Of a stretch of DNA of 64,000 nucleotides, positions 1,313 to 44,189 are shown piece by piece. Positions within the stretch are counted from its first letter, which is position 1, and each line of letters opens with the position of its first letter. The notes under the pieces were generated by a model. That model worked only from the letters and a program-made list of their open reading frames with translations, had not been told where the DNA came from and made no database searches. The stretch covers positions 64,001 to 128,000 of IMG/VR virus record IMGVR_UViG_3300028821_000038. One strand, 5' to 3'. The stretch is from a virus. The position numbers and the translations under genes were made by a program.

Positions 1313-1825
1313 TTATTTCTCCATTATTTCATGTATAAAAGTGTGGTCAAATATTTTTAGATAATTTGACATATTTTCCTCGTGGGACACCACACTCACC
1401 TCTACTCCCATGCGCGCTGCAAATTTTAGTGCGCTTACCATATCCCCATCTCCACTCAATAGGACAATATGATCAGAATTGCCAACTTCTCTAATAATCT
1501 CTTCGACAATCATTGCATCCATATCGCCCTGTTCGTACTTATGGGTATATTTAACGCCATTGTACTCGCCCTCTACCTCTTTCTTTTTGGCTTCCCTTTT
1601 TTTAACAAGAATATTATTCCTCTCCAGGAAGCCTATGAAGGATTGGAGGTTAATGTTGTTATTAACCTTCAATAGGGCTACTTCTTTGACATACAGGGAT
1701 GGGTATTTTTCTTTAATAAAGTTCGATATCTTGATAATATCTACATTTTTTACCCTATACCCATCCCCTCCTTTGGGGACTTTTATATTTTCTACATCAT
1801 ATATGATGACCATCCTACATGCCAT
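1313..1825 (-). CDS. NYN-domain (LabA/DUF88, PIN-like) nuclease
   Basis: IIYDVENI, QGDMDAMI, VLLSGDGDM, GVEVSVVS motifs; GGAGG RBS. Confidence 0.85.
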   Translation of the reverse strand: MACRMVIIYDVENIKVPKGGDGYRVKNVDIIKISNFIKEKYPSLYVKEVALLKVNNNINLQSFIGFLERNNILVKKREAKKKEVEGEYNGVKYTHKYEQGDMDAMIVEEIIREVGNSDHIVLLSGDGDMVSALKFAARMGVEVSVVSHEENMSNYLKIFDHTFIHEIMEK

Positions 1826-1863
1826 TGCACCTCCTATGTGTTTTTATAGAGAGACATAATCTC

Positions 1864-1878
1864 CCATATATATATACC
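1864..1878 (-). promoter_or_regulatory. GGTATATATATATGG motif copy 1 (candidate phage promoter)
   Basis: Exact 15-mer upstream of the NYN/RecE operon; identical copies at 15259, 21082, 27858. Confidence 0.65.
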
Positions 1879-1938
1879 ATTTTAAGCTGTAGAATTGCTG
1901 TTTTATGCGATAATTCAATAAAAACGGACGGAGTACAC

Positions 1939-4611
1939 ATGGATACTTATCGAACCTTATGGAGGTTTTTTAGAGAGAATAGGGAGTATTTCTCCAAGAT
2001 GGGAGATGCATACAAGGTACGAATAGACTTTGAAAATGAGCTATTTTTCATAAAAAACAGGTGGTTTGCCGACCCGTTTTACCTACTTTTGAAGCTTTTT
2101 CGTGATAAATTTGCCGAATTGGGGCCTAGCGCAGACGGGGAATTTAATAGAATCAACAAAATCCTTCATTCTGCGGGCATCAAGATTCCTATTTCCAAGA
2201 AAGACTATGATTTTCTTATAGATTATGATGTGAAAAACCAAACTATTCTGGATATATTAGAAGGACAGCTGGGTGCTAAAAATGGAGCATTTGTGGTTCC
2301 GTCAAAAGAGTATGCGAACAATATGTTCAGGAACGCATCTGTTGATTTAGAGAGAATGACTGGTGGTCTTTTTGTATATGAAGGTCGAGAGGCGAGAGCA
2401 TATGTGGACATATATGACAGGCTGACTGGATTTGAGGTGATTCTGGACAATTCTACTATTTTTGTGCCTGTGAAAATATCAGAGATATCAAGATCTGCCT
2501 TCAATGAGCACAATCTCAGGAACATAAAACCCAACTCGGTTGTGAAAATCTTAGAGATAACTGATACATCCCCCATAGAGGATGGAGTTGTATTTGCGCC
2601 ATCTGACTCATTCGGGTGCCTCCCCAATGTTGCTAAATATTTCTCTGCCTTCGAAATATACAGTAACGACGATTTCTTTATAATGAATATTGTCAAAGAG
2701 CTTTATGGTTATAACAGCGATTTTTCAATTCTAGTGAATGATGAGAGTGCTATAAAATATATCTCAAATATGGCGGTTGGTTTGTATACCAAAGAAAAAT
2801 CATCGGCTATTCCACAGCTTGTGGATATAGCCAGAATGGTTGCCAAAATGAATCACATAAACAGGGCAATGTTTATCGACTATATCACTACAGATATACC
2901 CGAAGATGTGATGGAGCTGCTAAAACCACACATAAATGGTGGAAATGACAATGTATATGAGCGACTATATGAGTTTGTGGTAAATGGAAATATAGAGTTT
3001 TGCGCCAGATTAGTGAGTATCACAGGCGATTCCAGTCAGATTAGGTTCTACAATAAGAGAATGATGTATTTCAAGGATTTTACACTCGACAGAGGAAGTG
3101 TATCTAACGAACTAATCCCAGAACTGGGAGGTATTAGGAAAATTGCCGAGCAGTGTGATATTTCCCAAAGTGACATTCCAAGCGGCTTCTCTTCTGTTGA
3201 GTCTTTTATAATTCACACTACACTCAGGATTGTGCAGGGAGAGTTTGGCAGATTGCCAGTATTTGACAGGTTTTATGGAGACGGGATACATAAAATAGGA
3301 GAGAAGATAATCTTTAACTCCAAGCATGATGTATATGGTCTTGGCGGCAGAAGGTCTTATGGCGGAGGGCTGTTTAAAAATGCTGATATAGACACTTCTA
3401 TCCCAAAAAACAAGCCGACAAAGGCGCATGCTGAGGGCTATATCTTAAAATTGAAAGAGTATATATCCGGTTTTATACCGTCTTCTGGGGACAGAGATTT
3501 GTTGTTTTCTATATTATTAGCATCATCTATTGCAATGCCTGTATTCAAAAAAGCCAACAAGCCCACCCTGTGTGTATATGGTGGTGGCAGATATGCGGAG
3601 GAGGGGTTCAAAAAGCGCGTATTTGTGGATGCTTTTAGGGCCAGCAAGGTTGTTTCAACAGATAATGAGCTTGTTATTAGGAATTTGGTTGACGGAGGAA
3701 CAGTGCCTATTGTTGTGCCGCTTAGGAGGGAAATAGAATCTTCTGTTATATCTCTAGCAAAAGAGAGGTATGGAACAGAAACAATAGTAAGAGCACGAGG
3801 TTTCCTGATGTTTTCAAAATACTCCAACACATCCCCATTTGTTATGATTTCCGATGAGCCTGTCATAATCGAGGAATCTATTGTGTTTAATTTCCCATTT
3901 AAGACAACTGTTGAGGCAGGGGTGTATCTTAAAAATGTCGATGACCTATCAGGAGGTATCATTGGAGGCATCATTAGAAATACTTCTCATATTTCAAAGC
4001 TTGAACAGAACTTCATTAAAAAAGCCCTGAGCAAACTGGAAAACAAAAAGCAAACCCACAAAAGTCCATATGTCGATTTTTTTGAGAAGGTTTTGGCAGG
4101 AATGTGTATAGCTGAGGCATTTGGGGTAATGTCTGGATGGGAGTTTCATGATGCCATGCATGATGTTTACTTCAATGATAAATATATCAGGCTGAATATC
4201 GATATAAAGAAGATAATTCTGGATTTGTATGACAATGGTGTAAAAGTTGAGGATAAATTATATGAGGAGTCTATGCGGGGAGATATCGATGGGCATATTA
4301 CATTGGTGGATAAGTTCATAAATATTATAAATCTCAAAAAAAATGTTCCGCCGGAAAACTTCTTGGTGATATTTAGCAGGAGGGAGATGTATAAGGCCAT
4401 TAAAGATGATCTCAACCTTTCCTTCCTTGAGTTTAACAAGATGTTAGATAATAGCAAGTCATCGATAAATTGGGATAATGCAATCAAAAACTATAGAAAA
4501 ATAGATGACCCATCCATCACCCCATTGGCGGAATTTAAGAAGAAGTGGGATAAAACAAAAGAGGATTTTGGCGCAATAAGGCTTCCTATGGGAAAATATG
4601 GAAATATTTAA
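1939..4611 (+). CDS. large protein with degenerate primase-associated helicase-like C-terminal region
   Basis: Start ATG 1939 after GGAG; PTLCVYGGG and ARG...SPFVMISDEP segments resemble P-loop helicase context but lack GKT/S. Confidence 0.45.
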   Translation: MDTYRTLWRFFRENREYFSKMGDAYKVRIDFENELFFIKNRWFADPFYLLLKLFRDKFAELGPSADGEFNRINKILHSAGIKIPISKKDYDFLIDYDVKNQTILDILEGQLGAKNGAFVVPSKEYANNMFRNASVDLERMTGGLFVYEGREARAYVDIYDRLTGFEVILDNSTIFVPVKISEISRSAFNEHNLRNIKPNSVVKILEITDTSPIEDGVVFAPSDSFGCLPNVAKYFSAFEIYSNDDFFIMNIVKELYGYNSDFSILVNDESAIKYISNMAVGLYTKEKSSAIPQLVDIARMVAKMNHINRAMFIDYITTDIPEDVMELLKPHINGGNDNVYERLYEFVVNGNIEFCARLVSITGDSSQIRFYNKRMMYFKDFTLDRGSVSNELIPELGGIRKIAEQCDISQSDIPSGFSSVESFIIHTTLRIVQGEFGRLPVFDRFYGDGIHKIGEKIIFNSKHDVYGLGGRRSYGGGLFKNADIDTSIPKNKPTKAHAEGYILKLKEYISGFIPSSGDRDLLFSILLASSIAMPVFKKANKPTLCVYGGGRYAEEGFKKRVFVDAFRASKVVSTDNELVIRNLVDGGTVPIVVPLRREIESSVISLAKERYGTETIVRARGFLMFSKYSNTSPFVMISDEPVIIEESIVFNFPFKTTVEAGVYLKNVDDLSGGIIGGIIRNTSHISKLEQNFIKKALSKLENKKQTHKSPYVDFFEKVLAGMCIAEAFGVMSGWEFHDAMHDVYFNDKYIRLNIDIKKIILDLYDNGVKVEDKLYEESMRGDIDGHITLVDKFINIINLKKNVPPENFLVIFSRREMYKAIKDDLNLSFLEFNKMLDNSKSSINWDNAIKNYRKIDDPSITPLAEFKKKWDKTKEDFGAIRLPMGKYGNI

Positions 4612-6070: not shown

Positions 6071-6295
6071 ATGATGCTTGTACTGATAAAGGATTCTAGT
6101 GGGGTAGAGAGAGCAATAGACCTCGGAAAACAAGGCTGGACTGTCAATCAGCAAGGGGACGGTAGGTTTATGCGGATAGTGTTCGATGATGGTTTTTCCG
6201 CTTCCATACCAATGTCGCAGTATGATAAAATAAAAAAAGAATTAGTGGAAAAAGGGGAGCTTCTCGATCTTACTCAAGTGGCGACTCCTAGATAA
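6071..6295 (+). CDS. hypothetical protein
   Basis: AAAGGA RBS, 74 aa. Confidence 0.65.
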   Translation: MMLVLIKDSSGVERAIDLGKQGWTVNQQGDGRFMRIVFDDGFSASIPMSQYDKIKKELVEKGELLDLTQVATPR

Positions 6296-6348: not shown

Positions 6349-9300
6349 ATGTCTTTCAAGAAATTAAGTAGGCCATATAAGGAAACAGATGAACATGTAA
6401 AGGCAAAGTTGCTAGAAACTCTTTCAAATATGTTTCCAATACAAGGAAATTTTTTCACACTAAAAGCAACAAATTTTGCCATAAAAAAATCCGACCCATC
6501 TATGACTGATATAAAAAATGCCCTCATCAAGGGTTCCTCTTTGATGTCATCAGTTGTCGCGGATGTATCTTTGATTAATAACAATACAAAGAAGGTGATC
6601 GATAAAAAGAGAATGACAATCATGAGGGTGCCTGATTTCACAAAGAAGGGCTCTTTTATTGTTGACGGTAACTCATATACGGTTCCGTATCAGCAAAGGC
6701 TTAAGCCTGGCGTCTATACTATGATAAAGAGAAATGGCCAAACAGAATCCATGTTTAACCTTGCAAAAGGACGAAATTTCTCTATAAAAATAGACGAAAG
6801 TGGTATTTTTAGGATAAAAATAGGAACATCTCATGTGTATTTATACTCTATATTGCATGACTTGGGCATTCCAGATAGCGAAATTGTAAACTACATTGGG
6901 AAAAACCTCCTGGAGGTGAACAAAAAACACTATCACTCTTCGGATTCTGCAAAGTTTATAAAGCAATTCACATATAATGCTTCTTCTCATGATATTGGAA
7001 GCATCCAGGACGCTCTCAAGCATACCTCTGTAGATAAAAGTGTGGTAAAAAATACTCTTGGGGTTGAGTCACCTCATGTGGACCCTATTATGATTCTTCG
7101 TGCAGCCCAAAAGCTAAAAAATGTTAAATTTGGGAAAGAAGAGGAGGATGACAGGGAGAATCTTGTCTATAAAAAGATAATGACCCCGGAAGACATCATA
7201 TCCGAGTCTTTCGACAAGCTTGCCAAAGATGCAGTAAATAAACTCAAATTCAAACTAAGCAACCCATCCACCGAGAACCTATCTGATGTTTTTAGGGGAG
7301 GAAGTGGCTTGCTCACTAAGCCAATAAAGACATTTTTGACTTCATCTAAAATATCCAGGCTTAGTGAGGAATATAATCCACTAATGATGCATTCAGTAAA
7401 GCATCTGCTTACCCCTATGGGAGAAGGAGGGGTTGGTGATACACGGGCATTGAACCTGGATACAAAAGCTGTTCACCAAAGTCACTTAGGCTTTATAGAC
7501 CCGATAGCATCTCCAGAAGGAGCTAGTGTCGGAATTACTCTTTCTGTGACAGATAATGCCTATGTTGATGAGCATGGAAACCCAGCTATTGGAGTCATCA
7601 ATGCAAAAACTGGCAAGCGTGAAATTAAGAAAGTGTCTGATTTGTGGGATAAAAAACTAGCCTACCCAATTTCACCAGAAAAGGCCAAAAAGGGCGGTAT
7701 TGTAGTAAGATACAAAGACAAGGATATTATTGCAAAAAGCAAGAAAGATGTTGATTATATAATACCAAAAGATACAGATATTCACTCCCCATCTCTCAAT
7801 ATGGTTCCACTTGTAAACTCTTCAGACGCAAACAGAACCAATATGGCGCAAAAACATTTACAGCAGGCTCTATCGCTAAAAGAAAGAGAGGCACCAATTG
7901 TATCTGTAAAGAGCGGTAGCGACGATATGGCTGCAAAGCTTGTAAAAGATATGGAACTTCTTCCTCGCGCCCCTATAGATGGCGTTGTCACCAAGATAGC
8001 CAACGAGTATATATATATCAAAAATGGAAAAAATCTTGTAAAAGTTGATTATGTTACAAACATGCCGCTTGCGAGAAAAACATATTTGACACACTATCTG
8101 AAAGTTAAAGTGGGGGATAGAGTAAGAAAGGGCCAGATTTTAGCAGAATCAAACTACTCTAAAGACGGAAAGCTTGCGCTTGGAAAAAACCTAAGAACAG
8201 CATGGCTCTCGATGCCAGGAAACAGAAACGATGGAATAATAATCTCTGAAACAGCAGCAAAGGAACTATCATCCCTTCATATGTACAAAGAGGTTGTGGA
8301 TATCCCTCATGATTCTGTATTGGACAGAGAGAGATTTAGGAAGCTGTTTCCAGATATCGCTGCAAAATGGGGTATAGAGAACTATGATGAGCATGGTGTT
8401 ATAAAGAAGGGGACTATTTTAAAGTTCAAGCAACCCCTTGTTCTGAAAATGGCTAGGACTGATGCAAAAGAGATAAAATCAAAACTCGGAAAGGTAGTTC
8501 ACAAGCCTTATAAGGCAGTATTAAATATATGGAAGCACGAAAAAGATGGCGAAGTTATAGATGTTGAGAATAATGGAGCAGAAATACGCATTTCTGTTAA
8601 AACAGAGAGTGAAATGAAAATAGGTGATAAGCTCTCTGGAAGGCAAGGTAATAAGGGTATAGTAACTAAAATACTACCAGATGACCAGATGCCTGTTAAT
8701 ACCAAAGGTGAGCCTGTTCATGTACTGATGACTTCAGCGGGAGTTATCAGTCGTACAAATAGTGGTTCCCTTATAGAGGCCGGTCTTGGTAAAGTTGGAG
8801 ACAAGGCAGGCAAGACATACACTATTGGTCACTATGAAAAAGATGACAACTTGAAGTTTTTGGAAAGCGAAGCCAAAAAGCACAAAGTGGACCTATATGA
8901 AACACTTATAAATCCTGAGACAGGAAAACCATTTCCGCAGAAGATATTTGTAGGGAAGCCCTACATACTAAAGCTATTTAAGGATTCAGAGTCTGGAATG
9001 AGTGCTGTTGGTGTGGGTGCTACCGACATTAATGAACAACCCCTCAAAGGCGGAAATACTTCAGCTGCATCCATATCTGGAATGGAGGTGAATGGTTTAC
9101 TTGCTCATGGTGCCAAAGACTTTTTAAGGGAAGCCAAGCATATCAAAGGGCAAAAAAACGATGACTTTTTCCATGCCTTTAGAACAGGAAGCCCATTGCC
9201 GCCGCCAAAGGAGCATTTTGCAACAGAAAAATTCAAAGCATATCTGAGGCAGATCAATATCAATCCTATTGCAGACAAGCATACAAAAGAGTTCTCTTTG

Positions 9301-10671
9301 ATGCCAATGACAGACAAAGAAGTGGTTAAGATGTCATCTGGGGCAATCAAAAATACCGAAACAGTTGCCGCAAAAAATATGAAAGTTGTAAAAGGCGGAC
9401 TCTTTGATGAGAGCATCTTTGGTGGCCCCCAGGGTACAAGATATGGCCACATAAATCTTCCTATGAAGATATTGAATCCTTTATATAAAGAGCAGGTAGC
9501 TGGTTTACTTGGCGTTTCCGCAGGAAAGCTAATAGATGAAGTCAATCATAATGGGTTTGACGATATCGAGAAACGGATATCAAGTATAGATGTAGACAAA
9601 AAACTAAAGCAATTGAAGTATGAGTCTAAAAATACATCTAATCAGCAGCTCATAAATAAAAACATAAAACAAATCAAGTTTCTTGAGAAGATCAAAAATT
9701 CTGGTCACAAGCTGAAAGATGCAGTATTTATCTCAAAAATCCCAGTGATTCCTCCCGTATATCGCCCTATTGCCAAGGGGATGGATGGCTCAGTTACCGT
9801 TAATGATTTAAATATGTTCTACCAAGATATCGGAATGCTCTCTGATGCTATTAAGCACTCTGGGAAAATAAGCGGAGGTACAAAAAAAGAACTATCGAAA
9901 GACCTATATCACACTGTTGGCGCCTTATATGGAGTAGAAGAGACTCCCAATAAGAAGTTGAAAAATAAACAAATTAAAGGGGTTTTGGATATTCTAGGAG
10001 GAGAGACTCCAAAAAAATCATATATCCATAAAACCATGCTCAGGTCTAAGCAGTTTATGAGTGGAAGGGGAGTTATAAAGCCTGCTCGAAACGATATCGC
10101 CCTTGATGAGATAGAAATTCCTGAAAAAATGGGACTCGAGATGTATAGCCCTCATATTCAAAGGAATTTGGCCAGAAGAGGATATTCCCCAATAGAGGCA
10201 AAAGAGTTGATTGAAAATAGAGATCCAAGAGCTATCGAAACTCTTCATGAGATAGGAAAGCATATTCCTGTTGTGTACAACCGTGCTCCTACGCTATGGA
10301 AACACAATATACTAGGGGGGTATCCAAAGTTCATCAAAGGTAGCACAATCGGCATCAATCCTCTAGTCGAAAGAGCCATGAATGCCGATTACGATGGTGA
10401 TACTGTTTCAGTACATGTCCCCTTGACTGATAAGGCGATCCATGATGTAAAAACTAAAATAATGCCAAGTAAAGCATTGTTTACCGAGGAGAAGGGGTAT
10501 CACGATCCAGATGTTTTGTACCTGCCTAACCAAGATGCAACCCTTGGAATATATAAGGCGTCTTTAAAATCCAGAAAACCCGTTAAGAGGGTAAAAAATA
10601 TAGATGAATTGAAACACAAGATTGCATCAGGAGAAATAAACTATAACGATAAGGTGATAGTGACAAGCTAA
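6349..10671 (+). CDS. phage multisubunit-type RNA polymerase: beta fused to N-terminal half of beta'
   Basis: beta motifs FIVDG, HQSHLGFIDPIASPEG, DANR, LALGKN, GDKLSGRQGNKG, QPLKGG/MEV..L.AHGA; beta' motifs GLFDESIFG, GHINL, PVIPPVYRP, SGRGVI, NRAPTL, catalytic NADYDGD. Confidence 0.95.
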   Translation: MSFKKLSRPYKETDEHVKAKLLETLSNMFPIQGNFFTLKATNFAIKKSDPSMTDIKNALIKGSSLMSSVVADVSLINNNTKKVIDKKRMTIMRVPDFTKKGSFIVDGNSYTVPYQQRLKPGVYTMIKRNGQTESMFNLAKGRNFSIKIDESGIFRIKIGTSHVYLYSILHDLGIPDSEIVNYIGKNLLEVNKKHYHSSDSAKFIKQFTYNASSHDIGSIQDALKHTSVDKSVVKNTLGVESPHVDPIMILRAAQKLKNVKFGKEEEDDRENLVYKKIMTPEDIISESFDKLAKDAVNKLKFKLSNPSTENLSDVFRGGSGLLTKPIKTFLTSSKISRLSEEYNPLMMHSVKHLLTPMGEGGVGDTRALNLDTKAVHQSHLGFIDPIASPEGASVGITLSVTDNAYVDEHGNPAIGVINAKTGKREIKKVSDLWDKKLAYPISPEKAKKGGIVVRYKDKDIIAKSKKDVDYIIPKDTDIHSPSLNMVPLVNSSDANRTNMAQKHLQQALSLKEREAPIVSVKSGSDDMAAKLVKDMELLPRAPIDGVVTKIANEYIYIKNGKNLVKVDYVTNMPLARKTYLTHYLKVKVGDRVRKGQILAESNYSKDGKLALGKNLRTAWLSMPGNRNDGIIISETAAKELSSLHMYKEVVDIPHDSVLDRERFRKLFPDIAAKWGIENYDEHGVIKKGTILKFKQPLVLKMARTDAKEIKSKLGKVVHKPYKAVLNIWKHEKDGEVIDVENNGAEIRISVKTESEMKIGDKLSGRQGNKGIVTKILPDDQMPVNTKGEPVHVLMTSAGVISRTNSGSLIEAGLGKVGDKAGKTYTIGHYEKDDNLKFLESEAKKHKVDLYETLINPETGKPFPQKIFVGKPYILKLFKDSESGMSAVGVGATDINEQPLKGGNTSAASISGMEVNGLLAHGAKDFLREAKHIKGQKNDDFFHAFRTGSPLPPPKEHFATEKFKAYLRQININPIADKHTKEFSLMPMTDKEVVKMSSGAIKNTETVAAKNMKVVKGGLFDESIFGGPQGTRYGHINLPMKILNPLYKEQVAGLLGVSAGKLIDEVNHNGFDDIEKRISSIDVDKKLKQLKYESKNTSNQQLINKNIKQIKFLEKIKNSGHKLKDAVFISKIPVIPPVYRPIAKGMDGSVTVNDLNMFYQDIGMLSDAIKHSGKISGGTKKELSKDLYHTVGALYGVEETPNKKLKNKQIKGVLDILGGETPKKSYIHKTMLRSKQFMSGRGVIKPARNDIALDEIEIPEKMGLEMYSPHIQRNLARRGYSPIEAKELIENRDPRAIETLHEIGKHIPVVYNRAPTLWKHNILGGYPKFIKGSTIGINPLVERAMNADYDGDTVSVHVPLTDKAIHDVKTKIMPSKALFTEEKGYHDPDVLYLPNQDATLGIYKASLKSRKPVKRVKNIDELKHKIASGEINYNDKVIVTS

Positions 10672-15258: not shown

Positions 15259-15273
15259 CCATATATATATACC
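15259..15273 (-). promoter_or_regulatory. GGTATATATATATGG motif copy 2
   Basis: Exact 15-mer. Confidence 0.65.
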
Positions 15274-15337: not shown

Positions 15338-15610
15338 ATGGCGAAGCGATCCGACAAAACAAACAAGTGTCAAATGTGCGGGGGGAAGGTAAAGAAAGAT
15401 GAGATTTTTTGCTGTGAAGAGTGTGAAAAAATGTTTGGGGCATATATGGATATCTCCATATCAAGCCTCTTTGTGGAGAAGGCCGTAAAAAGAACTAGTG
15501 CCGAAGAGTTGGTCCAGGTTTTTCGGGATTATGCTATCCAAAAAGGATACGACCTCTCCTTGTTTTCTAAGAAATTAATGAATCAATACAGGATTTTGGT
15601 GGTATTTTAA
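15338..15610 (+). CDS. Zn-ribbon protein (DUF2116-like N-terminus)
   Basis: CQMCGG...FCCEEC. Confidence 0.6.
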   Translation: MAKRSDKTNKCQMCGGKVKKDEIFCCEECEKMFGAYMDISISSLFVEKAVKRTSAEELVQVFRDYAIQKGYDLSLFSKKLMNQYRILVVF

Positions 15611-18600
15611 TGCATTTTCTTATAGAGAGACCCGCTTACCCTAATGAAACACTAGACTACTATAACTACAATCTGCCCTTTTTTACTTTAGGTAAAAATC
15701 AAGATATATTAGATAAATATATTGATAAAATCGTTGATTTTTCCAATTCTCTTGAAATTTTCACAGAAAAAGATAAGATTTTCATATATTCTGATGGTGT
15801 TTCCAATAGGTTTTTTATTGACAAGATTGCCGATATTGTCAATATTACGGGGGAAATGACTCTTTATGCATCGTCTGTTTTTAAAAAATCAATAGTTTTC
15901 GACAATATAACCGACAACTCTATTCTGAATATGGAGGAGTTGGAGTATTACATGTCTCGAAATGGGTTTCTACCAAGATATTTTGATTTTGATAGTTTTA
16001 CCCAGAAAGCTAAATATCCATTCTCTAATCTATTGTCTGTCAGAAACATAGAACAGGTGCTTATCAGTAGAGACATACTGGAGCCGACATTAGTGTCACC
16101 AGTAACTGATACTCCAAATGATAGACCATATGATATAGTAAATATTGATTTTGCAAATACATTTCTTATACCCAAGCAATATCAAACAGATATAGTCAAA
16201 GTAGAACATGATAATATAAATAGGATAGAGATAGACACTGGCTTTATATATAGCGCGGTATTCGTAGAAGATTATGAGCCTACCGAAGGAAGGCAATTAA
16301 TTCCAAAGAGATACTGCACTACACATGGATATACTGTTTCTCCTGTTATTTCAGAAGAGACTTATATAAACGAGCCGCTACTATCGAGAACCCCGATAAA
16401 TAAAGAATCTCTTGTTGATATATCAAGTAGATACATTAGTACTACTGACAAGCATGCAAAATACTTCTCGGTAAACAGAACTAACAACATAGAGATACCC
16501 GAAGATTTTGTGATAAGCTACAATGAGGCAAAGAGCATCATAGATAAAAAGTTTAAAGATATTCTGAGCCCAAGAGTGGAAGATTTACAAACATTCAAGA
16601 AGTACCTTGCATCTATGTGTGATTTGGATAATATGTATCTGGATCATACATACTCTGTTCCTGGGGGAATGGTATATTTGGGATTTGACTGCACAAGGAT
16701 GGATTCCTTACTAAATTATGAATCGCTTATTGAGATATTGCATACTCCAGGCAAATTCTTGGATACTGATTGTCACACAAAGAGAGCCTCTTTATATTTT
16801 AGCTTCGAAGACAAGAAGGATATTGATAAGTTTGCATCTATTGCTCAAACACTAAGCGCACCAATAGATATTGGGGAGGACAGGATTGGACAGGTATACC
16901 AGCAACTAAAAAAGGTTGTGAAGAAGATTTGTATCATGTCGCCAGATATTATTTTTGGAGATGATATTCCAGAGCATCCATCTATTCGCCCGACATTGAT
17001 AAATATTCCCCCAATGGGGAATTATAACAACATCACACCATACATAAGAACATTCATAAATGTGCCGTACTATAAAAAGCCCCCTTTTGTTGCAATATTT
17101 TCCCCTCCAATCATTGGAAGCGTTATTGTGGGATATCCTATGTCCCAAATATCAGTTCCGAGATACCAAAAGGCTTATTTCCCTGTCTCCACAGGTAAAC
17201 CTATCATACCCACTACAATAGCCCCATTTTCTCCATTTTTGATGTTTATAGGTGGTATTCCATCGTTTGACGACTCAATAACCGTAAATTATTTCATTAG
17301 AAAGGACGGTGAAGTTATCAGTGGAAATGCGCTGAGTCAAACTATGGATGATAACTGTCTTAAGTTCGTAGTCAACATATACCGGACTGTAAATATGATG
17401 GATGTGGCAGCAATACACTCCAAGCTTGATATTCAGAAGTTCTTCTGGGATTCTCCCAAAAAGAATAGAGTCCTTACTCGCCCTCAAATGGCGGCACTTT
17501 TCCTTGGAGATGTTATGTGTGAACTGGGGAACAGAATCGATGTTCCAATGAATGTAGATTTTTCAGATGGGTTCTTTTTTGATGATGGAGGAGCATCCAC
17601 TTTAGAGGAAAGTCAACCCTCTAATAGTATTTCGTGCCTATCTGAAGAGGATACTGAGTCGGATGCAATCTATGCCCCCAGTGTAGTGGCCAAGAAAATA
17701 GGATGGAGGATAGGTAAATACAATGTGATGTGGGATGGTAATGACTACGGAGAGCAAGTGCTTACTGAGACTGAGGTGCTACAAGGAAACCCTGCGCCAA
17801 ATATATCCTTGGAAGCTTGGTCTGTTTTTAGGGACGACGATTACATTCAGAAAGTGTCTGAAGTTGTAGATGCTATAATAGACAACATTGAAGAATACTT
17901 TAGGGTTAGGAAGGTAGAGAATGTTACTGTCTCAGACCAGATAGTAGCAGACTTCAACAATATAGAGCCAAATCTGTCGTGTGTCATGCTGGAATATATA
18001 GACCTATCCCACACCAATCTAGAATATCAAAATAAAACAAGGGGAGATCCGCTTGGAATATTTGAGACAGATATGGAATTGCCGTGCACCAGTGTTTCTG
18101 AGATAGTAGATGGTTTCAGCCTTGTTGTTCTGAATCCCAGCCAAAGCGTAGGGGGCAATCCAGAAGAATACAAAAAGAACCCGCCCCTTATTAAGTCAGG
18201 TGGCAATAAGATTAGAATATGGAAACCATATATAGATGTTGGGACCAAATCTTATTCAGGGTTACCGGTTATTATGGTTGGTGACAATAATGAGGGGGCT
18301 ATCTCAACTTATAACGAGGTTGTCTTTATACATGAGCCGTCAGACATATCAACCGCTTTCAAATATACAGCATCAGGCGTAACAGTGAGCGTTGTTACAA
18401 AAGAGGTTGATGGTAGCACCTACCATGCCCTAAAAGCCTCCATTGGAGATAGTGATAGATATGTTTTATTCAAGAAGGTAGGAGAAGGGGAGGCACCCCA
18501 AGAGGCAGACGACAAGATACTTTGCGATGGCTTCAATGATTGGGCTGCTCCCGTAGGTATAAATGGTGGTAGTGGCACAATAAATGCTTCTATTTCCAAT

Positions 18601-19617
18601 GTATCTCTATTGGGACAAGAGGACGAAGAGCTGCCAGTAATGATGTGTAAAACTGATGTTGAGGTAGCAGACAACACTATTACAGATGGATGTTCTAGTG
18701 GGATAAGTGGGACTGACCGGAACAACATATCAGATTTATCGTCTATATTTGTAGAAACAGGGGAACAAGAGTATGGAGAAGTTCCTACATCTATCAGTAT
18801 AAGCCTATTTATGATGTTTCAAAAGGTAACAAAAGACAAAAACAATTCAAAGACAATAAATAACACTTCGCAATCAATAGGACTCACACTCGGATGTGTA
18901 GATGGAATGCAGAATATAAATGGGGATGCCCTGGCGCAAGGACTGACGCAGGAGGAGATAGATGATATTGCTGATGATTTGGAGCATGTTACATATGTGT
19001 GTCCCGACTTCAAATCGAAAGAAGTTCTAGATTTTTCTAGGATTAAGAATGATGAAAACAAAGAGCTGGGCAGCCTGTTTGTTATGGATATCAAGGAATT
19101 TGTAAACACCAATCTTGTGATATCCAATGACGAATGTGTAGATCAGCGAATAAAAGATGAGATTAACCCCTCGGGGGATGACTCCATAAAGATTCCATTT
19201 GGAAAATATATAGATGAAGAGGGTGAAGTTAAAGATTCTGAGGTTGTAATAAATACTATGTCAATGTCCATAGAAGACATGATAGAAGGCACTGTGTTAT
19301 TATCCAGCATAAGTACATCAGGCTACACATCAGCATACAAACATGCCGGGCAGAATCCAAAATGGCCTGTAGTGATTGGTTATAACGGTTCCTCAGAATT
19401 GTCCCTATTCGATAAAAACAGGATAGTTGGTACGACACCCAGTAATTTTGTAAATGTAGTGAGTCTTAGTGGGGATAGTTTCGATGAGCATATACTTGCA
19501 AACAATGATACATTAAGTCATGTCACGATATATATATTGGATGACAAGATAGGCATCTATGTCAAGGATATCTATGCGCCACTATCTCAAAATAGAGTCA
19601 TGAAAACAACACAGTAA
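15610..19617 (+). CDS. large acidic protein of unknown function (possibly structural)
   Basis: 1335-aa ORF; no motif recognised. Confidence 0.7.
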   Translation: MHFLIERPAYPNETLDYYNYNLPFFTLGKNQDILDKYIDKIVDFSNSLEIFTEKDKIFIYSDGVSNRFFIDKIADIVNITGEMTLYASSVFKKSIVFDNITDNSILNMEELEYYMSRNGFLPRYFDFDSFTQKAKYPFSNLLSVRNIEQVLISRDILEPTLVSPVTDTPNDRPYDIVNIDFANTFLIPKQYQTDIVKVEHDNINRIEIDTGFIYSAVFVEDYEPTEGRQLIPKRYCTTHGYTVSPVISEETYINEPLLSRTPINKESLVDISSRYISTTDKHAKYFSVNRTNNIEIPEDFVISYNEAKSIIDKKFKDILSPRVEDLQTFKKYLASMCDLDNMYLDHTYSVPGGMVYLGFDCTRMDSLLNYESLIEILHTPGKFLDTDCHTKRASLYFSFEDKKDIDKFASIAQTLSAPIDIGEDRIGQVYQQLKKVVKKICIMSPDIIFGDDIPEHPSIRPTLINIPPMGNYNNITPYIRTFINVPYYKKPPFVAIFSPPIIGSVIVGYPMSQISVPRYQKAYFPVSTGKPIIPTTIAPFSPFLMFIGGIPSFDDSITVNYFIRKDGEVISGNALSQTMDDNCLKFVVNIYRTVNMMDVAAIHSKLDIQKFFWDSPKKNRVLTRPQMAALFLGDVMCELGNRIDVPMNVDFSDGFFFDDGGASTLEESQPSNSISCLSEEDTESDAIYAPSVVAKKIGWRIGKYNVMWDGNDYGEQVLTETEVLQGNPAPNISLEAWSVFRDDDYIQKVSEVVDAIIDNIEEYFRVRKVENVTVSDQIVADFNNIEPNLSCVMLEYIDLSHTNLEYQNKTRGDPLGIFETDMELPCTSVSEIVDGFSLVVLNPSQSVGGNPEEYKKNPPLIKSGGNKIRIWKPYIDVGTKSYSGLPVIMVGDNNEGAISTYNEVVFIHEPSDISTAFKYTASGVTVSVVTKEVDGSTYHALKASIGDSDRYVLFKKVGEGEAPQEADDKILCDGFNDWAAPVGINGGSGTINASISNVSLLGQEDEELPVMMCKTDVEVADNTITDGCSSGISGTDRNNISDLSSIFVETGEQEYGEVPTSISISLFMMFQKVTKDKNNSKTINNTSQSIGLTLGCVDGMQNINGDALAQGLTQEEIDDIADDLEHVTYVCPDFKSKEVLDFSRIKNDENKELGSLFVMDIKEFVNTNLVISNDECVDQRIKDEINPSGDDSIKIPFGKYIDEEGEVKDSEVVINTMSMSIEDMIEGTVLLSSISTSGYTSAYKHAGQNPKWPVVIGYNGSSELSLFDKNRIVGTTPSNFVNVVSLSGDSFDEHILANNDTLSHVTIYILDDKIGIYVKDIYAPLSQNRVMKTTQ

Positions 19618-21081: not shown

Positions 21082-21096
21082 GGTATATATATATGG
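21082..21096 (+). promoter_or_regulatory. GGTATATATATATGG motif copy 3
   Basis: Exact 15-mer heading the SSB/rII gene cluster. Confidence 0.65.
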
Positions 21097-27857: not shown

Positions 27858-27872
27858 GGTATATATATATGG
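27858..27872 (+). promoter_or_regulatory. GGTATATATATATGG motif copy 4
   Basis: Exact 15-mer heading the peptide-JAB-E1-E2 operon. Confidence 0.65.
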
Positions 27873-39725: not shown

Positions 39726-41660
39726 GTGGCTGATGTAAAAAGAAAAAGAGCATTCCCTATAGATGTAGATATGGCGTATTCCAAGTACAGAGAGTTTTGG
39801 GATAAGGACTATAGTGAGATATTTCTGACGATGGCTGGTATTGGTGATGTGTGGGAGTCGCCAAGTGGTAATTTCGAGAATAGTTTCGTGGGTATTTCTA
39901 CAATAGGCGGCATTGAAATTTACAAAGACAAAATCTATATAGTGCAAGGCTATGGTATGCAAACCATAGTGAAGGTCATAAGCCCACAGGGTATTGAAAT
40001 ATACGGTATTGGACCTACAGGAATATTGATGAAGTCCTGTAATAGAGGGCTGCAGGGCAACCTGACTGTGCTAAACGATGATGAATTAATCGTTGGCTAT
40101 ATGTATGTAAATCTAAAGAGGTTGTTTTCAGCGCCATATGGAATAGACCTGGGCAGCCTATATGGCAATAAGTATTGGAAGATAAGCAATTCAAGAGTAA
40201 GCTCTGTCGCCTGGGTTAGTGGTGTTCAGGATTTGGGAGGTTGGTCTATCGCTCTATTCAAGAGGGCTGCTATGGAGGACTGTTTTGATTGCGATATAAA
40301 GAAGAAATTGGCGGCAGAAAACAAAGCTTTTGAATGTGAGCAGATAGACAACTCATTCAATCTTCATGGATTCTCTTTTGCGAAGAAGGCAACTCGTTCC
40401 ATGATAGCCACAGGCGTAAGTATGTCTATATCAAGAATGGGGGGCTTGGAGTTAATGGATGATATCAAGCCACCCAGTGGAGATGGCGTAACCTGTCTGC
40501 AGGCCATAGCTAAGTATCAGAAGGTGTTCAAAAAACAGAAGCCATCTGCCTCCGAAATAGGAAATGTTGGAAACTTGATATCAGAGAAGTGCAGCTCATA
40601 TATGATGCGGTATGTCGTGGAGATATCCAGCTATAGAGAAAGCGTTGACCAGATGTATGAGAATTATGTGGAAAAAAGCATCAGGGGTGATGCTGACGCC
40701 AATGAATGGCTTATACAAAACAGCAGGGATGTAGTGTCGTTGATTGCTCCTGCTCTTAGTGACATAACCGCCACCGCGATAGACAATAACACAATAGACC
40801 TTCTTTTTGAGGATATTGTGTGGTGGGCGCCAATATGGTTTATTGCAAACCCAGACAAGGTGCTGGAAGGCCAGATTGGGGCGGCATACAACACAGCTAG
40901 GCTTATAGATAGAGACAACTTTATAAAGGCACTGAAAAATGCCGCGATGAGTGCTCCTCCGCTCCCTAGTGATTCACCATTCAAGGTGAAGTGGGTACTT
41001 GCGTCTCCTGCTGGTACCAAGCCTGCCAAATTTGTAAAAAACACGGCGACTTTCTATAGTTTTCCAATGGGTATATGCTATTCAGCAGATATTATTGCCC
41101 GAGCAGATAGAGATGCGTTCGATTGGATATGTGAAGTGGAGACCAGGGCTGACGGAATGCTTATATGGGCGTGGAAGAATGTATCGCCACTCAATGAGAA
41201 ATTCGATATGGTTCTAAAGTGTTTCAAGGTTACAAATGATGGCCAATTTACAGAAATTGCCTCTACTCATGTAGGGAGATGGGGAACTCCGCTGTCTGGT
41301 TCCGCAAAGGCTGTAGCTGTATCTCCGGATAACACTTTTTTTGTGGTTAGGGATTACTACCTGAAGAATAGCAAAACCGGGCCGATAGCATTTACCGAGG
41401 TGAAGGTCAATATAAATGCGGATATGACCGAAATACTAAATCTCCCCATAGTGAACCACTACGCCAATATAGATGAGGTCACATTGGACTACATGCAAAC
41501 CAACATACATCACTGGAATGATGGCTTGTTCGAGTCTGACTGGTCTGATTTTGATCTTGACGACAATACGGTTAGAATGATGACTGGGCAGAGTATAGAT
41601 TACCTATCGTTCGTGAAGGGGTACTCTGCTTATAAAGTTGGGGAATTAGGAAGTTGGTGA
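39726..41660 (+). CDS. hypothetical protein, probably tail-associated
   Basis: 644-aa ORF at head of tail-fibre cluster. Confidence 0.6.
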   Translation: MADVKRKRAFPIDVDMAYSKYREFWDKDYSEIFLTMAGIGDVWESPSGNFENSFVGISTIGGIEIYKDKIYIVQGYGMQTIVKVISPQGIEIYGIGPTGILMKSCNRGLQGNLTVLNDDELIVGYMYVNLKRLFSAPYGIDLGSLYGNKYWKISNSRVSSVAWVSGVQDLGGWSIALFKRAAMEDCFDCDIKKKLAAENKAFECEQIDNSFNLHGFSFAKKATRSMIATGVSMSISRMGGLELMDDIKPPSGDGVTCLQAIAKYQKVFKKQKPSASEIGNVGNLISEKCSSYMMRYVVEISSYRESVDQMYENYVEKSIRGDADANEWLIQNSRDVVSLIAPALSDITATAIDNNTIDLLFEDIVWWAPIWFIANPDKVLEGQIGAAYNTARLIDRDNFIKALKNAAMSAPPLPSDSPFKVKWVLASPAGTKPAKFVKNTATFYSFPMGICYSADIIARADRDAFDWICEVETRADGMLIWAWKNVSPLNEKFDMVLKCFKVTNDGQFTEIASTHVGRWGTPLSGSAKAVAVSPDNTFFVVRDYYLKNSKTGPIAFTEVKVNINADMTEILNLPIVNHYANIDEVTLDYMQTNIHHWNDGLFESDWSDFDLDDNTVRMMTGQSIDYLSFVKGYSAYKVGELGSW

Positions 41661-43582
41661 TGACTAGAAAAGATGCTTTCGCTGTAGGACATTTCGGTTT
41701 CTTTAGGGATGCTGATTTGACAATGAAATTGTCCGATGAAAACCTGTATGACCAGATAGGTGCAAATGGGTGGATAGAGTTATGGTTTGGCGGCAGTGAT
41801 TTATGGCTCCCGGATTCTGGAACATATGCGGTGCATGTAACCACTCCAACTACATTTTTTTGGGATATAGTGGACGAGAATGGCAAAAGGACCAAGACTG
41901 GCTTTAGTGCCATACAGGTGCCATACAATATCAATATGGAGTCTCACTATGGCGATATCATTCCAGAGAATCCCGATGAAGTGTTCGACTATACCATAAG
42001 TAATCCTGCTCAAGATGTCGTTCCTCTTATATGCTCTAACTTATGGTTCTACACGAACTATTTTTCAGACCAATACTATAGATATAACCTGCTTGTGCTT
42101 AATGTGAATCAGCCGCCGTGGCCGAATGAGATAGATGTAGATATTCGTCCTATGAATGACAACCTAAAGCTCTATCCTGGAGAGTATATTGTTGGATATA
42201 GGCCTAAGATAGAGTATATGAACCAGTTAGCGGTGGTAAAGACAATAAAATCTGGGGATGATGGGAAAATATTGTTCCGACTGAAGGTTGATTTGAATTT
42301 TTTATCAGAAAACCCGACTGCAAAGAGATATTTGCGTGTTTTTACCCCTTCATGGGATAAAGTTGAGGTACTTTTGTTCCCTAGAAGCCCCAATGATATC
42401 CTGTGGCACAAAAACAGGAGGTTTGTGAATGAGTATTTCAGGTATATTTTATATAACGGAATCATGCAGTATTTGCCGCCAAATAACCTCCTAGATAGGG
42501 CAGAAGAGGTATATCGAGAGTTTATGGAGGCCAGTAATTATATTTTGAAGCTGGATTCATCGAATATGAGGCTCGTTGCCAGAGATATAGACCGGATTTT
42601 AGTAGGAGAGAAGATAAAATTGGTCGGATATAGTGCCCTAATAGCTCCATACTTCTTAAAATGGGTGAATCAGCACTTGGTTGACAAAGTATATTACGAC
42701 CAGTGGGATATTTTATACCACATTGTGCTCACTACGCAATACTACAAGGGTTTTGATAGGTTAGATGACTATATGGGCAATATGGTGGGCAATATAGATA
42801 AAAATACCGGTCTTCCTGCTGTGTGGGATGGCGACATAGAGATTGTTGATGGCCAATATGTAATCGCCAATGGCGGGGAGATACAGAAGATTCCAGAATG
42901 GGCTATAGAAGAGCCCATCAAGATAGTCACTAAAGATGGGGTGAAGCAGTATGAGGATGGATATGTTCCGACTAGCGCCAAAGAATATCTCAATCCGAAG
43001 CCTGGATACCTATATGAAGGTGATACTGGCAGTGGCATATACAAGATAATGGTCGCTGAAAGACCTGTAGATGTTTTTTGCGATATGGAGAGTGATGGCG
43101 GGGGCTGGATGTATCTTATTGTCAGCCATGCGACAGAAATCGACTATATCAAGCAGCTTGGTGATACATATTCGATAGAGCAAACTCTGTATAGAAGCGA
43201 GGATTATGGTGTAGGGTGGGGCGATAATACCGGTAATTGGTATGGGATTCAGTTCTACAATATGCCTTTTACCGAGATATCGGTCTATCTTAGCGGTGAA
43301 TATGACAATCCCGAGGAGGGCACAGGGTATCTGGAGATGATTACCGGTGCATCCGGTGTGGTTGTATCTTTCAAGGATGAAAATACCGATGCCGAGTCGG
43401 GACAGACCCTTATAGTGGATGGTACTGAGATTTTTCGCAACCAAAAAGAAAATCTAGTAAAATACAAGGTAGTTTCACACCAGAACAATACTGGGGGAGT
43501 GAACAATCTGGTGGTTAGGATGAGGGGCGATGAGGATGTCCCATATACAAAAAGATATATCTATATGTTGGCAGTGAGATAA
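41660..43582 (+). CDS. tail protein with C-terminal fibrinogen-like domain
   Basis: SGIYKI...VFCDMESDGGGWM; N-terminal FGFFRDADLT motif. Confidence 0.7.
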   Translation: MTRKDAFAVGHFGFFRDADLTMKLSDENLYDQIGANGWIELWFGGSDLWLPDSGTYAVHVTTPTTFFWDIVDENGKRTKTGFSAIQVPYNINMESHYGDIIPENPDEVFDYTISNPAQDVVPLICSNLWFYTNYFSDQYYRYNLLVLNVNQPPWPNEIDVDIRPMNDNLKLYPGEYIVGYRPKIEYMNQLAVVKTIKSGDDGKILFRLKVDLNFLSENPTAKRYLRVFTPSWDKVEVLLFPRSPNDILWHKNRRFVNEYFRYILYNGIMQYLPPNNLLDRAEEVYREFMEASNYILKLDSSNMRLVARDIDRILVGEKIKLVGYSALIAPYFLKWVNQHLVDKVYYDQWDILYHIVLTTQYYKGFDRLDDYMGNMVGNIDKNTGLPAVWDGDIEIVDGQYVIANGGEIQKIPEWAIEEPIKIVTKDGVKQYEDGYVPTSAKEYLNPKPGYLYEGDTGSGIYKIMVAERPVDVFCDMESDGGGWMYLIVSHATEIDYIKQLGDTYSIEQTLYRSEDYGVGWGDNTGNWYGIQFYNMPFTEISVYLSGEYDNPEEGTGYLEMITGASGVVVSFKDENTDAESGQTLIVDGTEIFRNQKENLVKYKVVSHQNNTGGVNNLVVRMRGDEDVPYTKRYIYMLAVR

Positions 43583-43592
43583 AGGAGAAACA

Positions 43593-44189
43593 ATGGCAAG
43601 CAAACCTGGAATCTACTTGAGAGGCGGCGCAAAAGATGATTTTAACGATCCGGGGCATGAAATTGGGGATAGAGAACTGGTGATTGCGACGGATACTATG
43701 GAGCTTGGCACCAGTAATGGCTTTTTTATTCCTGGTGGCAAAGTGAGGAATGTCTATTTCGCACAAACTCCCGCAGAGAGACAAGAGATCACATCGTCTG
43801 AGCCGGTGGTAATAGACGGTCTTAGTCTAAATATAACTCCAGAGTTTCAGAATAGCAGCTTTATTGTGACCGCGACAGTGCTGGGAACTTTTACATATAC
43901 GTCATCTTTGCTTGTGTATCTAAATGGCGCCAATATAGCATCCCACGATTCAAACAATGTGTATCAGGGGAGTCTTGTAACCACATATCACGGCAACAAC
44001 ACCACCAACAATATGTATTCATACAATTTGCAAGCTATGATATCCCCTCAAACTACACAACCAATCACAATCGATATAAGAGCACTAAGTCATTGGGGTA
44101 CTTCAACATATACGACATATATAAACGATAGGGCCGGAAACGATATGAGGTGTGTGTCTTCTATGGTTGTTTACGAGGTGCTGTCATGA
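43593..44189 (+). CDS. tail fibre/tip-like protein
   Basis: Ser/Thr/Asn-rich beta domain ending SSMVVYEV. Confidence 0.55.
   Translation: MASKPGIYLRGGAKDDFNDPGHEIGDRELVIATDTMELGTSNGFFIPGGKVRNVYFAQTPAERQEITSSEPVVIDGLSLNITPEFQNSSFIVTATVLGTFTYTSSLLVYLNGANIASHDSNNVYQGSLVTTYHGNNTTNNMYSYNLQAMISPQTTQPITIDIRALSHWGTSTYTTYINDRAGNDMRCVSSMVVYEVLS

Follow-up and report, generated by a model that had tools for sequence, protein, structure and literature searches.

A phage-encoded RNA polymerase with β fused to the N-terminal half of β′ and the C-terminal half of β′ on a second chain

The window analysed here is a 64,000-nucleotide stretch of the IMG/VR virus record IMGVR_UViG_3300028821_000038 and spans positions 64,001 to 128,000 of that record (G000:C1:64001-128000). 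It carries a gene for a 1440-aa RNA polymerase (RNAP) chain, P0001, in which β is fused to the N-terminal half of β′. The genes for a second RNAP chain, which supplies the C-terminal half of β′, and for a sigma factor are on the same contig but precede the window. The coordinates of these features are collected in Table 1.

The two chains of the polymerase

Pfam domains were matched in P0001 in the order Rpb2_2, Rpb2_3 and Rpb2_6 (aa 139-901), then Rpb1_1 and Rpb1_2 (aa 1076-1368). Matches to PDB structures were to β up to aa 970 and to β′ starting at aa 1069, with a weak match to the β′ N-terminus from aa ~980. This domain order agrees with a preliminary description of the gene, made from the sequence alone, as one open reading frame (ORF) that runs from β motifs directly into β′ motifs and holds both catalytic barrels. 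P0001 carries the double-psi-barrel signatures of bacterial-type multisubunit RNAPs, namely DxDGD in β′ and two lysines in β. The three metal-loop aspartates, both lysines and further catalytic-centre residues were invariant among 54 homologues. The β portion includes the fork loop/rifampicin region and retains the equivalents of Q688 and D814. Its residues in the rifampicin pocket depart from the consensus of sensitive enzymes, which predicts an enzyme insensitive to the drug. The tyrosine that replaces phenylalanine in the metal loop is present as described, but it is usual for the family and nearly invariant in A2 and is no peculiarity of P0001.

The β′ N-terminal zinc-finger cysteines are absent, as had been noted. 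P0001 has no Cys at all, and ~5 residues (aa ~1025-1030) stand in the place of the zinc-binding domain of B. subtilis RpoC; the motif is likewise missing in 38 single-chain relatives. The chain ends 38 aa past the QD..LG.Y motif (PNQDATLGIY in the preliminary description), ahead of the bridge helix and trigger loop. Reference bacterial β and β′ together amount to ~2300-2800 aa, 1.6-1.9 times its length, close to the factor of two estimated earlier. A hydrophobic-x-K-x-S tag at the N-terminus was found in only part of the close homologues. The 74-aa gene directly upstream (window 6071-6295) was not assignable as a subunit, with no usable match returned from Pfam or Atlas.

The stop at 10671 is genuine, because an identical protein is present on four contigs from JGI and ENA assemblies and because homologues share the end point. 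Among the best 120 homologues, nearly all terminate ~60-150 aa past the metal loop, the exceptions being one short fragment and three long forms (P0097, P0117 and P0119). A frameshift or read-through was ruled out, as no β′C sequence was found downstream of 10671 in any frame; the gene 3′ of P0001 has its own ribosome-binding site and homologues unconnected with RNAP. The long-tailed homologues were considered as full fusions, and the one of the three that was checked, P0117, instead has an intein/LAGLIDADG insertion and a separate β′C gene. Breakage of the large-chain gene by inteins or homing-endonuclease insertion is frequent (OZ196140.1, Vibrio phage D181; OZ196545.1, Vibrio phage D148; P0117, P0243 and others).

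The preliminary description had proposed a streamlined two-piece enzyme with its β′-C partner encoded elsewhere, and a motif scan of the whole genome located such a partner 36 kb upstream of the large-chain gene. The 583-aa small chain matched the β′ C-terminal half in sequence (E 4e-29), and its AlphaFold model had a predicted local distance difference test score (pLDDT) of 86.6 and a template-modelling (TM) score of about 0.6 to β′ structures. This separate chain holds the bridge helix, the four invariant cysteines of the second zinc site and the trigger loop; Arg and Thr in the bridge helix, like Gln and His in the trigger loop, are also invariant. On a 2063-position profile of single-chain relatives, P0001 covers positions 6-1457 and P0123 covers 1460-2041, leaving a gap of two positions. 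A six-frame search of the genome yielded exactly these two pieces and no third. The β′-C gene was found in 5/5 close relatives, where it and the large gene are on different strands and ~25-66 kb apart.

When large-chain aa 1130-1440 and the small chain were modelled as a complex, the score was 0.79, compared to 0.00 for the best of three controls; the mark used was reached by 58/80 solved pairs and by 2/110 mismatched pairs. Contact agreement between runs was at least 95% and partner pLDDT at least 82. In the model the C-terminus of the large chain contacts the N-terminus of the small chain, so that the cut ends meet. Because the chains are halves of a split gene, the score may pass through likeness to solved RNAPs, and the model supports the pairing rather than demonstrating binding.

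A GNAT-like gene (weak match, E 0.07; G000:C1:32214-32690, L001:6215-6691) overlaps the start of the β′-C gene. Acetylation of host alpha is known for phage GNATs, phiKMV Rac being an example (PMC7824862); a link of this gene to the RNAP would be speculative.

Table 1. Features of the split polymerase, its sigma factor and the candidate promoters. Positions are those of the window unless prefixed.
Feature	Position	Strand	Remark
Large RNAP chain P0001, β fused to β′ N-half	6349..10671	+	Single open frame, 1440 aa
β portion, aa 1 to ~970	6349..9258	+	Below bacterial β in length
β double-psi barrel motif, aa 759-770	8623..8658	+	Catalytic lysines K761 and K769
β′ N portion, aa ~980-1440	9286..10668	+	Clamp, switch 2, double-psi barrel
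Mg-binding loop NADYDGD, aa 1345-1351	10381..10401	+	D1347, D1349, D1351
Small RNAP chain P0122/P0123, β′ C-half, 583 aa	G000:C1:32653-34404 (L001:6654-8405)	+	Head-morphogenesis block
Divergent sigma-70 P0370, 216 aa	G000:C1:21135-21785 (L013:3136-3786)	+	Orthologue of Arash virion sigma gp10
Candidate phage promoter GG-(TA)n-TG, copy 1	1864..1878	-	Heads replication block; putative function
Candidate phage promoter, copy 2	15259..15273	-
Candidate phage promoter, copy 3	21082..21096	+
Candidate phage promoter, copy 4	27858..27872	+
Candidate phage promoter, two further copies	Genome 159443 and 161872	-	Outside window

Family and relation to known polymerases

The layout of a β+β′N chain with a stand-alone β′C chain (~580-610 aa) is common to hundreds of phages, with 358 matching stretches confirmed in IMG/VR. 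The cultured members are Salmonella phage Arash (gp206 and gp216) and Vibrio phages D69, D148 and D181. These share the layout, the break point and the clade of the query enzyme (OQ632216 and PMC10585845 for Arash), and Arash also has orthologues of the sigma, portal, major capsid, terminase and head-block genes. Arash differs in being only ~30% identical, in having its RNAP genes ~5 kb apart rather than 36 kb, and in encoding a second sigma, gp196. In the passages considered, the authors of the Arash study name the chains plainly β and β′ and do not remark on the layout (PMC10585845). No published description of the β+β′N / β′C layout was found in the literature searched, with most subscription journals outside its coverage.

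When the small chain was searched against longer proteins, ~60 single-chain β-β′ fusions were retrieved, ranking above any bacterial β′. These fusions are ~2000-2100 aa long, or more with inteins, and the contigs checked were phage-like. Two-gene loci by the dozen break at the same profile position as P0001/P0123. Over 1452 trimmed columns, the query shared 30-66% identity with two-chain forms and 29-36% with single-chain forms; for bacteria the figure was 26-29%, and for mReC, a class of metagenomic phage RNAPs, it was 22-25%. Among the matches listed, a GTDB search gave cellular rpoBC only, at 23-30% identity, and pointed to neither a prophage nor a host.

Trees were built with FastTree, LG+F+G4 and LG+C20; these are quick trees with a bacterial root and with phiKZ sequences left out, and the support values given here are to be read with that scope. 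All three agree on three groups: bacteria including cyanobacteria, the mReC clade and the family of the query. The mReC clade (support 97-99), with the published mReC contigs L034 and L069 among its members, leaves the query outside. The two-chain forms make up one clade (support 99).

The mReC enzymes (Weinheimer & Aylward 2020, PMC7481178) are likewise phage-encoded, alignable multisubunit RNAPs apart from cellular ones. Their β (~1000-1560 aa) and intact β′ (~900-1390 aa) are separate, often in two sets, unlike the query enzyme. The mReC definition requires separate β and β′ of at least 800 aa each with NADxDGD in β′, whereas here the motif is on the β-bearing chain and the other chain has 583 aa. 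The capsid family of mReC phages is PF07068 / VOG11186; PF07068 was unmatched, and the G000 capsid, a homologue of Arash gp226, had no Pfam match. The large terminase subunit of G000 matched PF03237, a further mReC criterion, weakly (E 5e-5) and PF05876 more strongly. The suggested kinship to deep-branching phage RNAPs from metagenomes is answered in two parts: the enzyme is not an mReC member, and a sister relation to mReC was not rejected by the approximately unbiased (AU) test (p-AU 0.27).

The phiKZ/AR9 RNAPs (PMC7598289, PMC7824862) resemble the query in having no alpha or omega and in a β′ cut just past the double-psi barrel. A virion-packaged version exists among them, as is proposed for the query phage. 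They differ in that β is split too, giving four or five chains; each genome encodes two enzymes and no sigma, and the sequences are much more diverged. In contrast, the query has a whole β fused to β′N, one RNAP set and an encoded sigma-70.

Cyanobacterial and plastid RpoC1 ends at profile position 1457-1458, matching P0001 (1457), and SGARG occupies residue 132 of RpoC2 and of the small chain alike. The β′ of Yersinia phage YerA41 is cut in the same region, in an enzyme of a different clade. In cyanobacteria and YerA41, unlike in the query, β is a separate chain, and cyanobacterial RNAP has the zinc finger as well as alpha and omega. Because the clades differ, the shared break appears convergent. 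Helicobacter and Wolbachia have full-length rpoBC fusions, which are complete cellular enzymes that depend on alpha. In these fusions and in the single-chain RNAP of crAss-like phages, the β C-terminus is joined to the β′ N-terminus, as in the query. The crAss-like RNAP is too diverged for a COG0085/0086 match (PMC7481178), whereas the query matches bacterial β and β′ readily.

Collectively, these comparisons place the query enzyme in an unnamed Arash-type family, outside the mReC and phiKZ-type RNAPs. To that family this genome adds a case with widely separated RNAP genes and only one sigma, of gp10 type, and with an AU test of the direction of change.

Sigma factor and proposed working of the enzyme

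The family of P0370 spans sigma-70 regions 2-4: its profile matched PDB at E 4e-23, and Sigma70_r3 was matched by 62 of 87 members. Atlas (0.97) and Foldseek, whose best matches were sigma chains, gave further support. P0370 is homologous to Arash gp10 (E 3e-8) in a comparable gene context. The query shares both a gp10-type sigma and head and portal genes with Arash. G000 and three relatives have one sigma copy apiece, and Arash has two; no counterpart of the second Arash sigma, gp196, was found in G000. Searches of G000 with Pfam Sigma70_r2, Arash gp196 or a local profile returned nothing, and P0370 was reached only transitively through L115.

Six copies of a GG-(TA)n-TG motif that lacks a TAnnnT hexamer point into replication and small-gene clusters, and the motif recurs in the nearest relatives. 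The bipartite promoter pattern and the exact 13-mer are absent from G001-G003 and Arash, and the reversed-pattern control of the motif was not independent. We tentatively regard the motif as a promoter of the phage enzyme, at slightly worse than even chances.

We propose that the 1440-aa and 583-aa chains assemble into a complete, pared-down bacterial-type RNAP core of 2023 aa. The large chain would provide both double-psi barrels, with the Mg-binding aspartates and two lysines, pre-joined in one polypeptide. The small chain would provide the funnel, bridge helix, trigger loop, second zinc site and jaw, docking where the chain was cut. Promoter specificity would come from P0370. The core would be made late, packaged with sigma and injected, and would then transcribe the early and replication genes. 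Heterodimer formation and catalytic activity are both highly probable. The account as a whole, a two-chain pared-down core that is packaged with a phage sigma and transcribes early genes, is likely, and the packaging of core and sigma in the virion with early and replication transcription upon injection is, judged by itself, reasonably likely.

A late-made, packaged core is the best reading because the small-chain gene lies in the head block, because the large-chain gene lies beside the portal gene in many relatives and because of the virion proteomics of Arash. The β′-C gene is followed by genes homologous to Arash gp218, gp219 and gp220, of which two encode proteins of the virion, and the large gene adjoins the portal gene in relatives (102 loci, portal cluster). 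In Arash virions, gp206 ranks first by spectra and gp216 fifth; gp10 was detected, and gp196 is unlisted (PMC10585845). Spectra per residue computed from these data are 2.3 for gp206, 2.0 for gp216 and 2.0 for gp10, which is near equimolar. The gene for an SNF2 helicase (G000:C1:2125-4299) encodes a homologue of Arash gp217, a virion protein whose gene directly follows gp216, and this helicase possibly works together with the RNAP.

No alpha or omega gene (PF01000, PF01192) was found in G000, with controls positive in 14/14. The end of the large chain retains a recognisable counterpart of a β′ segment that lies near alpha in bacterial RNAP. Both observations would fit a hybrid enzyme in which the phage chains require host alpha (and omega). 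We consider such a hybrid unlikely, since the family is spread over widely differing hosts and habitats, a virion enzyme would need to be packaged complete, and jumbo-phage RNAP cores function without alpha and omega (PMC7598289). We lean slightly towards an enzyme that works without either subunit, the β-β′ fusion taking the role of alpha as assembly platform.

The two chains could instead make up a non-virion RNAP that is produced after infection by host RNAP and serves middle or late genes. This is the sole RNAP of the genome and late genes require some polymerase, and co-purification could account for the Arash proteomics (PMC10585845). A non-virion role is nevertheless improbable given the positions of the β′-C gene in the head block and of the large gene by the portal in relatives. 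Moreover, the sigma is of the virion-found gp10 type, while the second Arash sigma is off the virion list, and the candidate promoter heads replication and small-gene clusters but not structural genes.

Several points nevertheless weigh against the packaged-core account. The Arash preparation was a sucrose-gradient fraction with 116 proteins, for which the authors allow co-purification (PMC10585845), and it is from Arash that packaging and early transcription in the query phage are inferred. Only one RNAP and one sigma were found, which does not account for late transcription. Finally, active-site neighbours are altered: the E813 equivalent is Asn, the bridge-helix SGY is PGA, and the trigger-loop R933/F935 equivalents are S/K.

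Origin of the split and genome context

The two-chain clade is nested among single-chain forms. A deep single-chain lineage (L055, L272, L273 and L275) branches outside the two-chain and the other single-chain forms (support 100), and monophyly of the single-chain forms was rejected (p-AU 3e-57). One fission of a single-chain β-β′ ancestor, itself the product of one β-β′ fusion by parsimony, is on this nesting the probable origin, and we hold it with good confidence. Against it stand the LG+G4 model of the AU test, which limits the nesting result, and the formal possibility of two independent fusions instead of one fission.

The latter would apply if the two-chain state were ancestral and the single-chain forms had arisen by repeated fusion. 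A split ancestor is conceivable from the β′ break common to cyanobacteria, YerA41 and phiKZ-like phages. It has little probability, however, since it requires two fusions where one fission suffices, β′ is intact in mReC, Carin-5 and most bacteria, and cyanobacteria cluster with bacteria (support 100). That P0001 is an assembly error, a pseudogene or a decaying recent copy of host rpoBC, the outcomes that the preliminary description had named as refuting it, has nothing in its favour except the abrupt end of the ORF and a negligible probability, given the same protein on four contigs, the end point shared by homologues, the unconnected following gene with its own ribosome-binding site, the merely 26-29% identity to bacteria and the separate clade in trees.

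L068 (3839-9820) and L070 (3995-9904) were rejected as independent splits, as they are single chains carrying an in-frame TGA; TGA is therefore probably recoded in those phages. Another family member (L059:3329-9637) is broken inside β, at profile position ~682, by a true split, an intron or an error. A reverse transcriptase gene (L015:4499-5371) lies close to a single-chain RNAP gene and possibly belongs to a diversity-generating retroelement. A Candidatus Paceibacterota genome has a fused rpoB-rpoC ORF of 2281 aa (L250:172-7017) that clusters with bacteria.

To our knowledge, every cellular RNAP requires alpha for assembly, and the known alpha-free phage enzymes (phiKZ, AR9) have no sigma. 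The family may, though we put this at somewhat below an even chance, represent a widespread uncharacterised class of virion-injected, alpha/omega-free cores of ~2000 aa in one or two chains that use a classical sigma-70. It would then amount to a minimal bacterial-type enzyme that depends on sigma, with β-β′ fusion having replaced the alpha platform and later fission having independently re-created the cyanobacterial/phiKZ break. If so, a one- or two-chain core with a true sigma-70 would reveal what alpha, omega and the β′ zinc finger are for and could serve as a compact orthogonal transcription system. The layout is directly testable, because the cultured member Arash exists (on S. Typhimurium ATCC 14028). 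The result also bears on whether the β′ break common to jumbo phages and cyanobacteria means shared origin, a point left open in PMC7598289. The same break has apparently arisen separately within the single-chain lineage; a common break site is therefore weak evidence of descent.

The source record is a linear 162,314-bp IMG/VR virus record (CheckV 82%) of an uncultured phage. The genome seems nearly complete, judging from an exact 93-bp repeat at G000:C1:1-93 and 159936-160028 and from further assemblies 160,054 and 163,736 bp long; the repeat also suggests that the genome is a circle of ~160 kb whose end is duplicated or variant. Homologues of terminase, head protease, portal and capsid point to a tailed phage related to the myovirus Arash. 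The best match of DnaB was to Arcobacter plasmids (36%), and a partner homologue was found in a Sulfurimonas single-cell genome; these are weak hints of a Campylobacterota host. In the window, proteins of 930 aa (1819-4611) and 1335 aa (15610-19617) are conserved in close relatives and matched nothing in Pfam or PHROG. Fibrinogen-C and triple laminin-G/lectin domain proteins (window 41654-47122) are probable adhesion or receptor-binding parts. Overlapping ORFs at G000:C1:136578-138234, a helix-turn-helix (HTH) serine recombinase and a long ORF, resemble an IS607-type element, as judged from sequence only.

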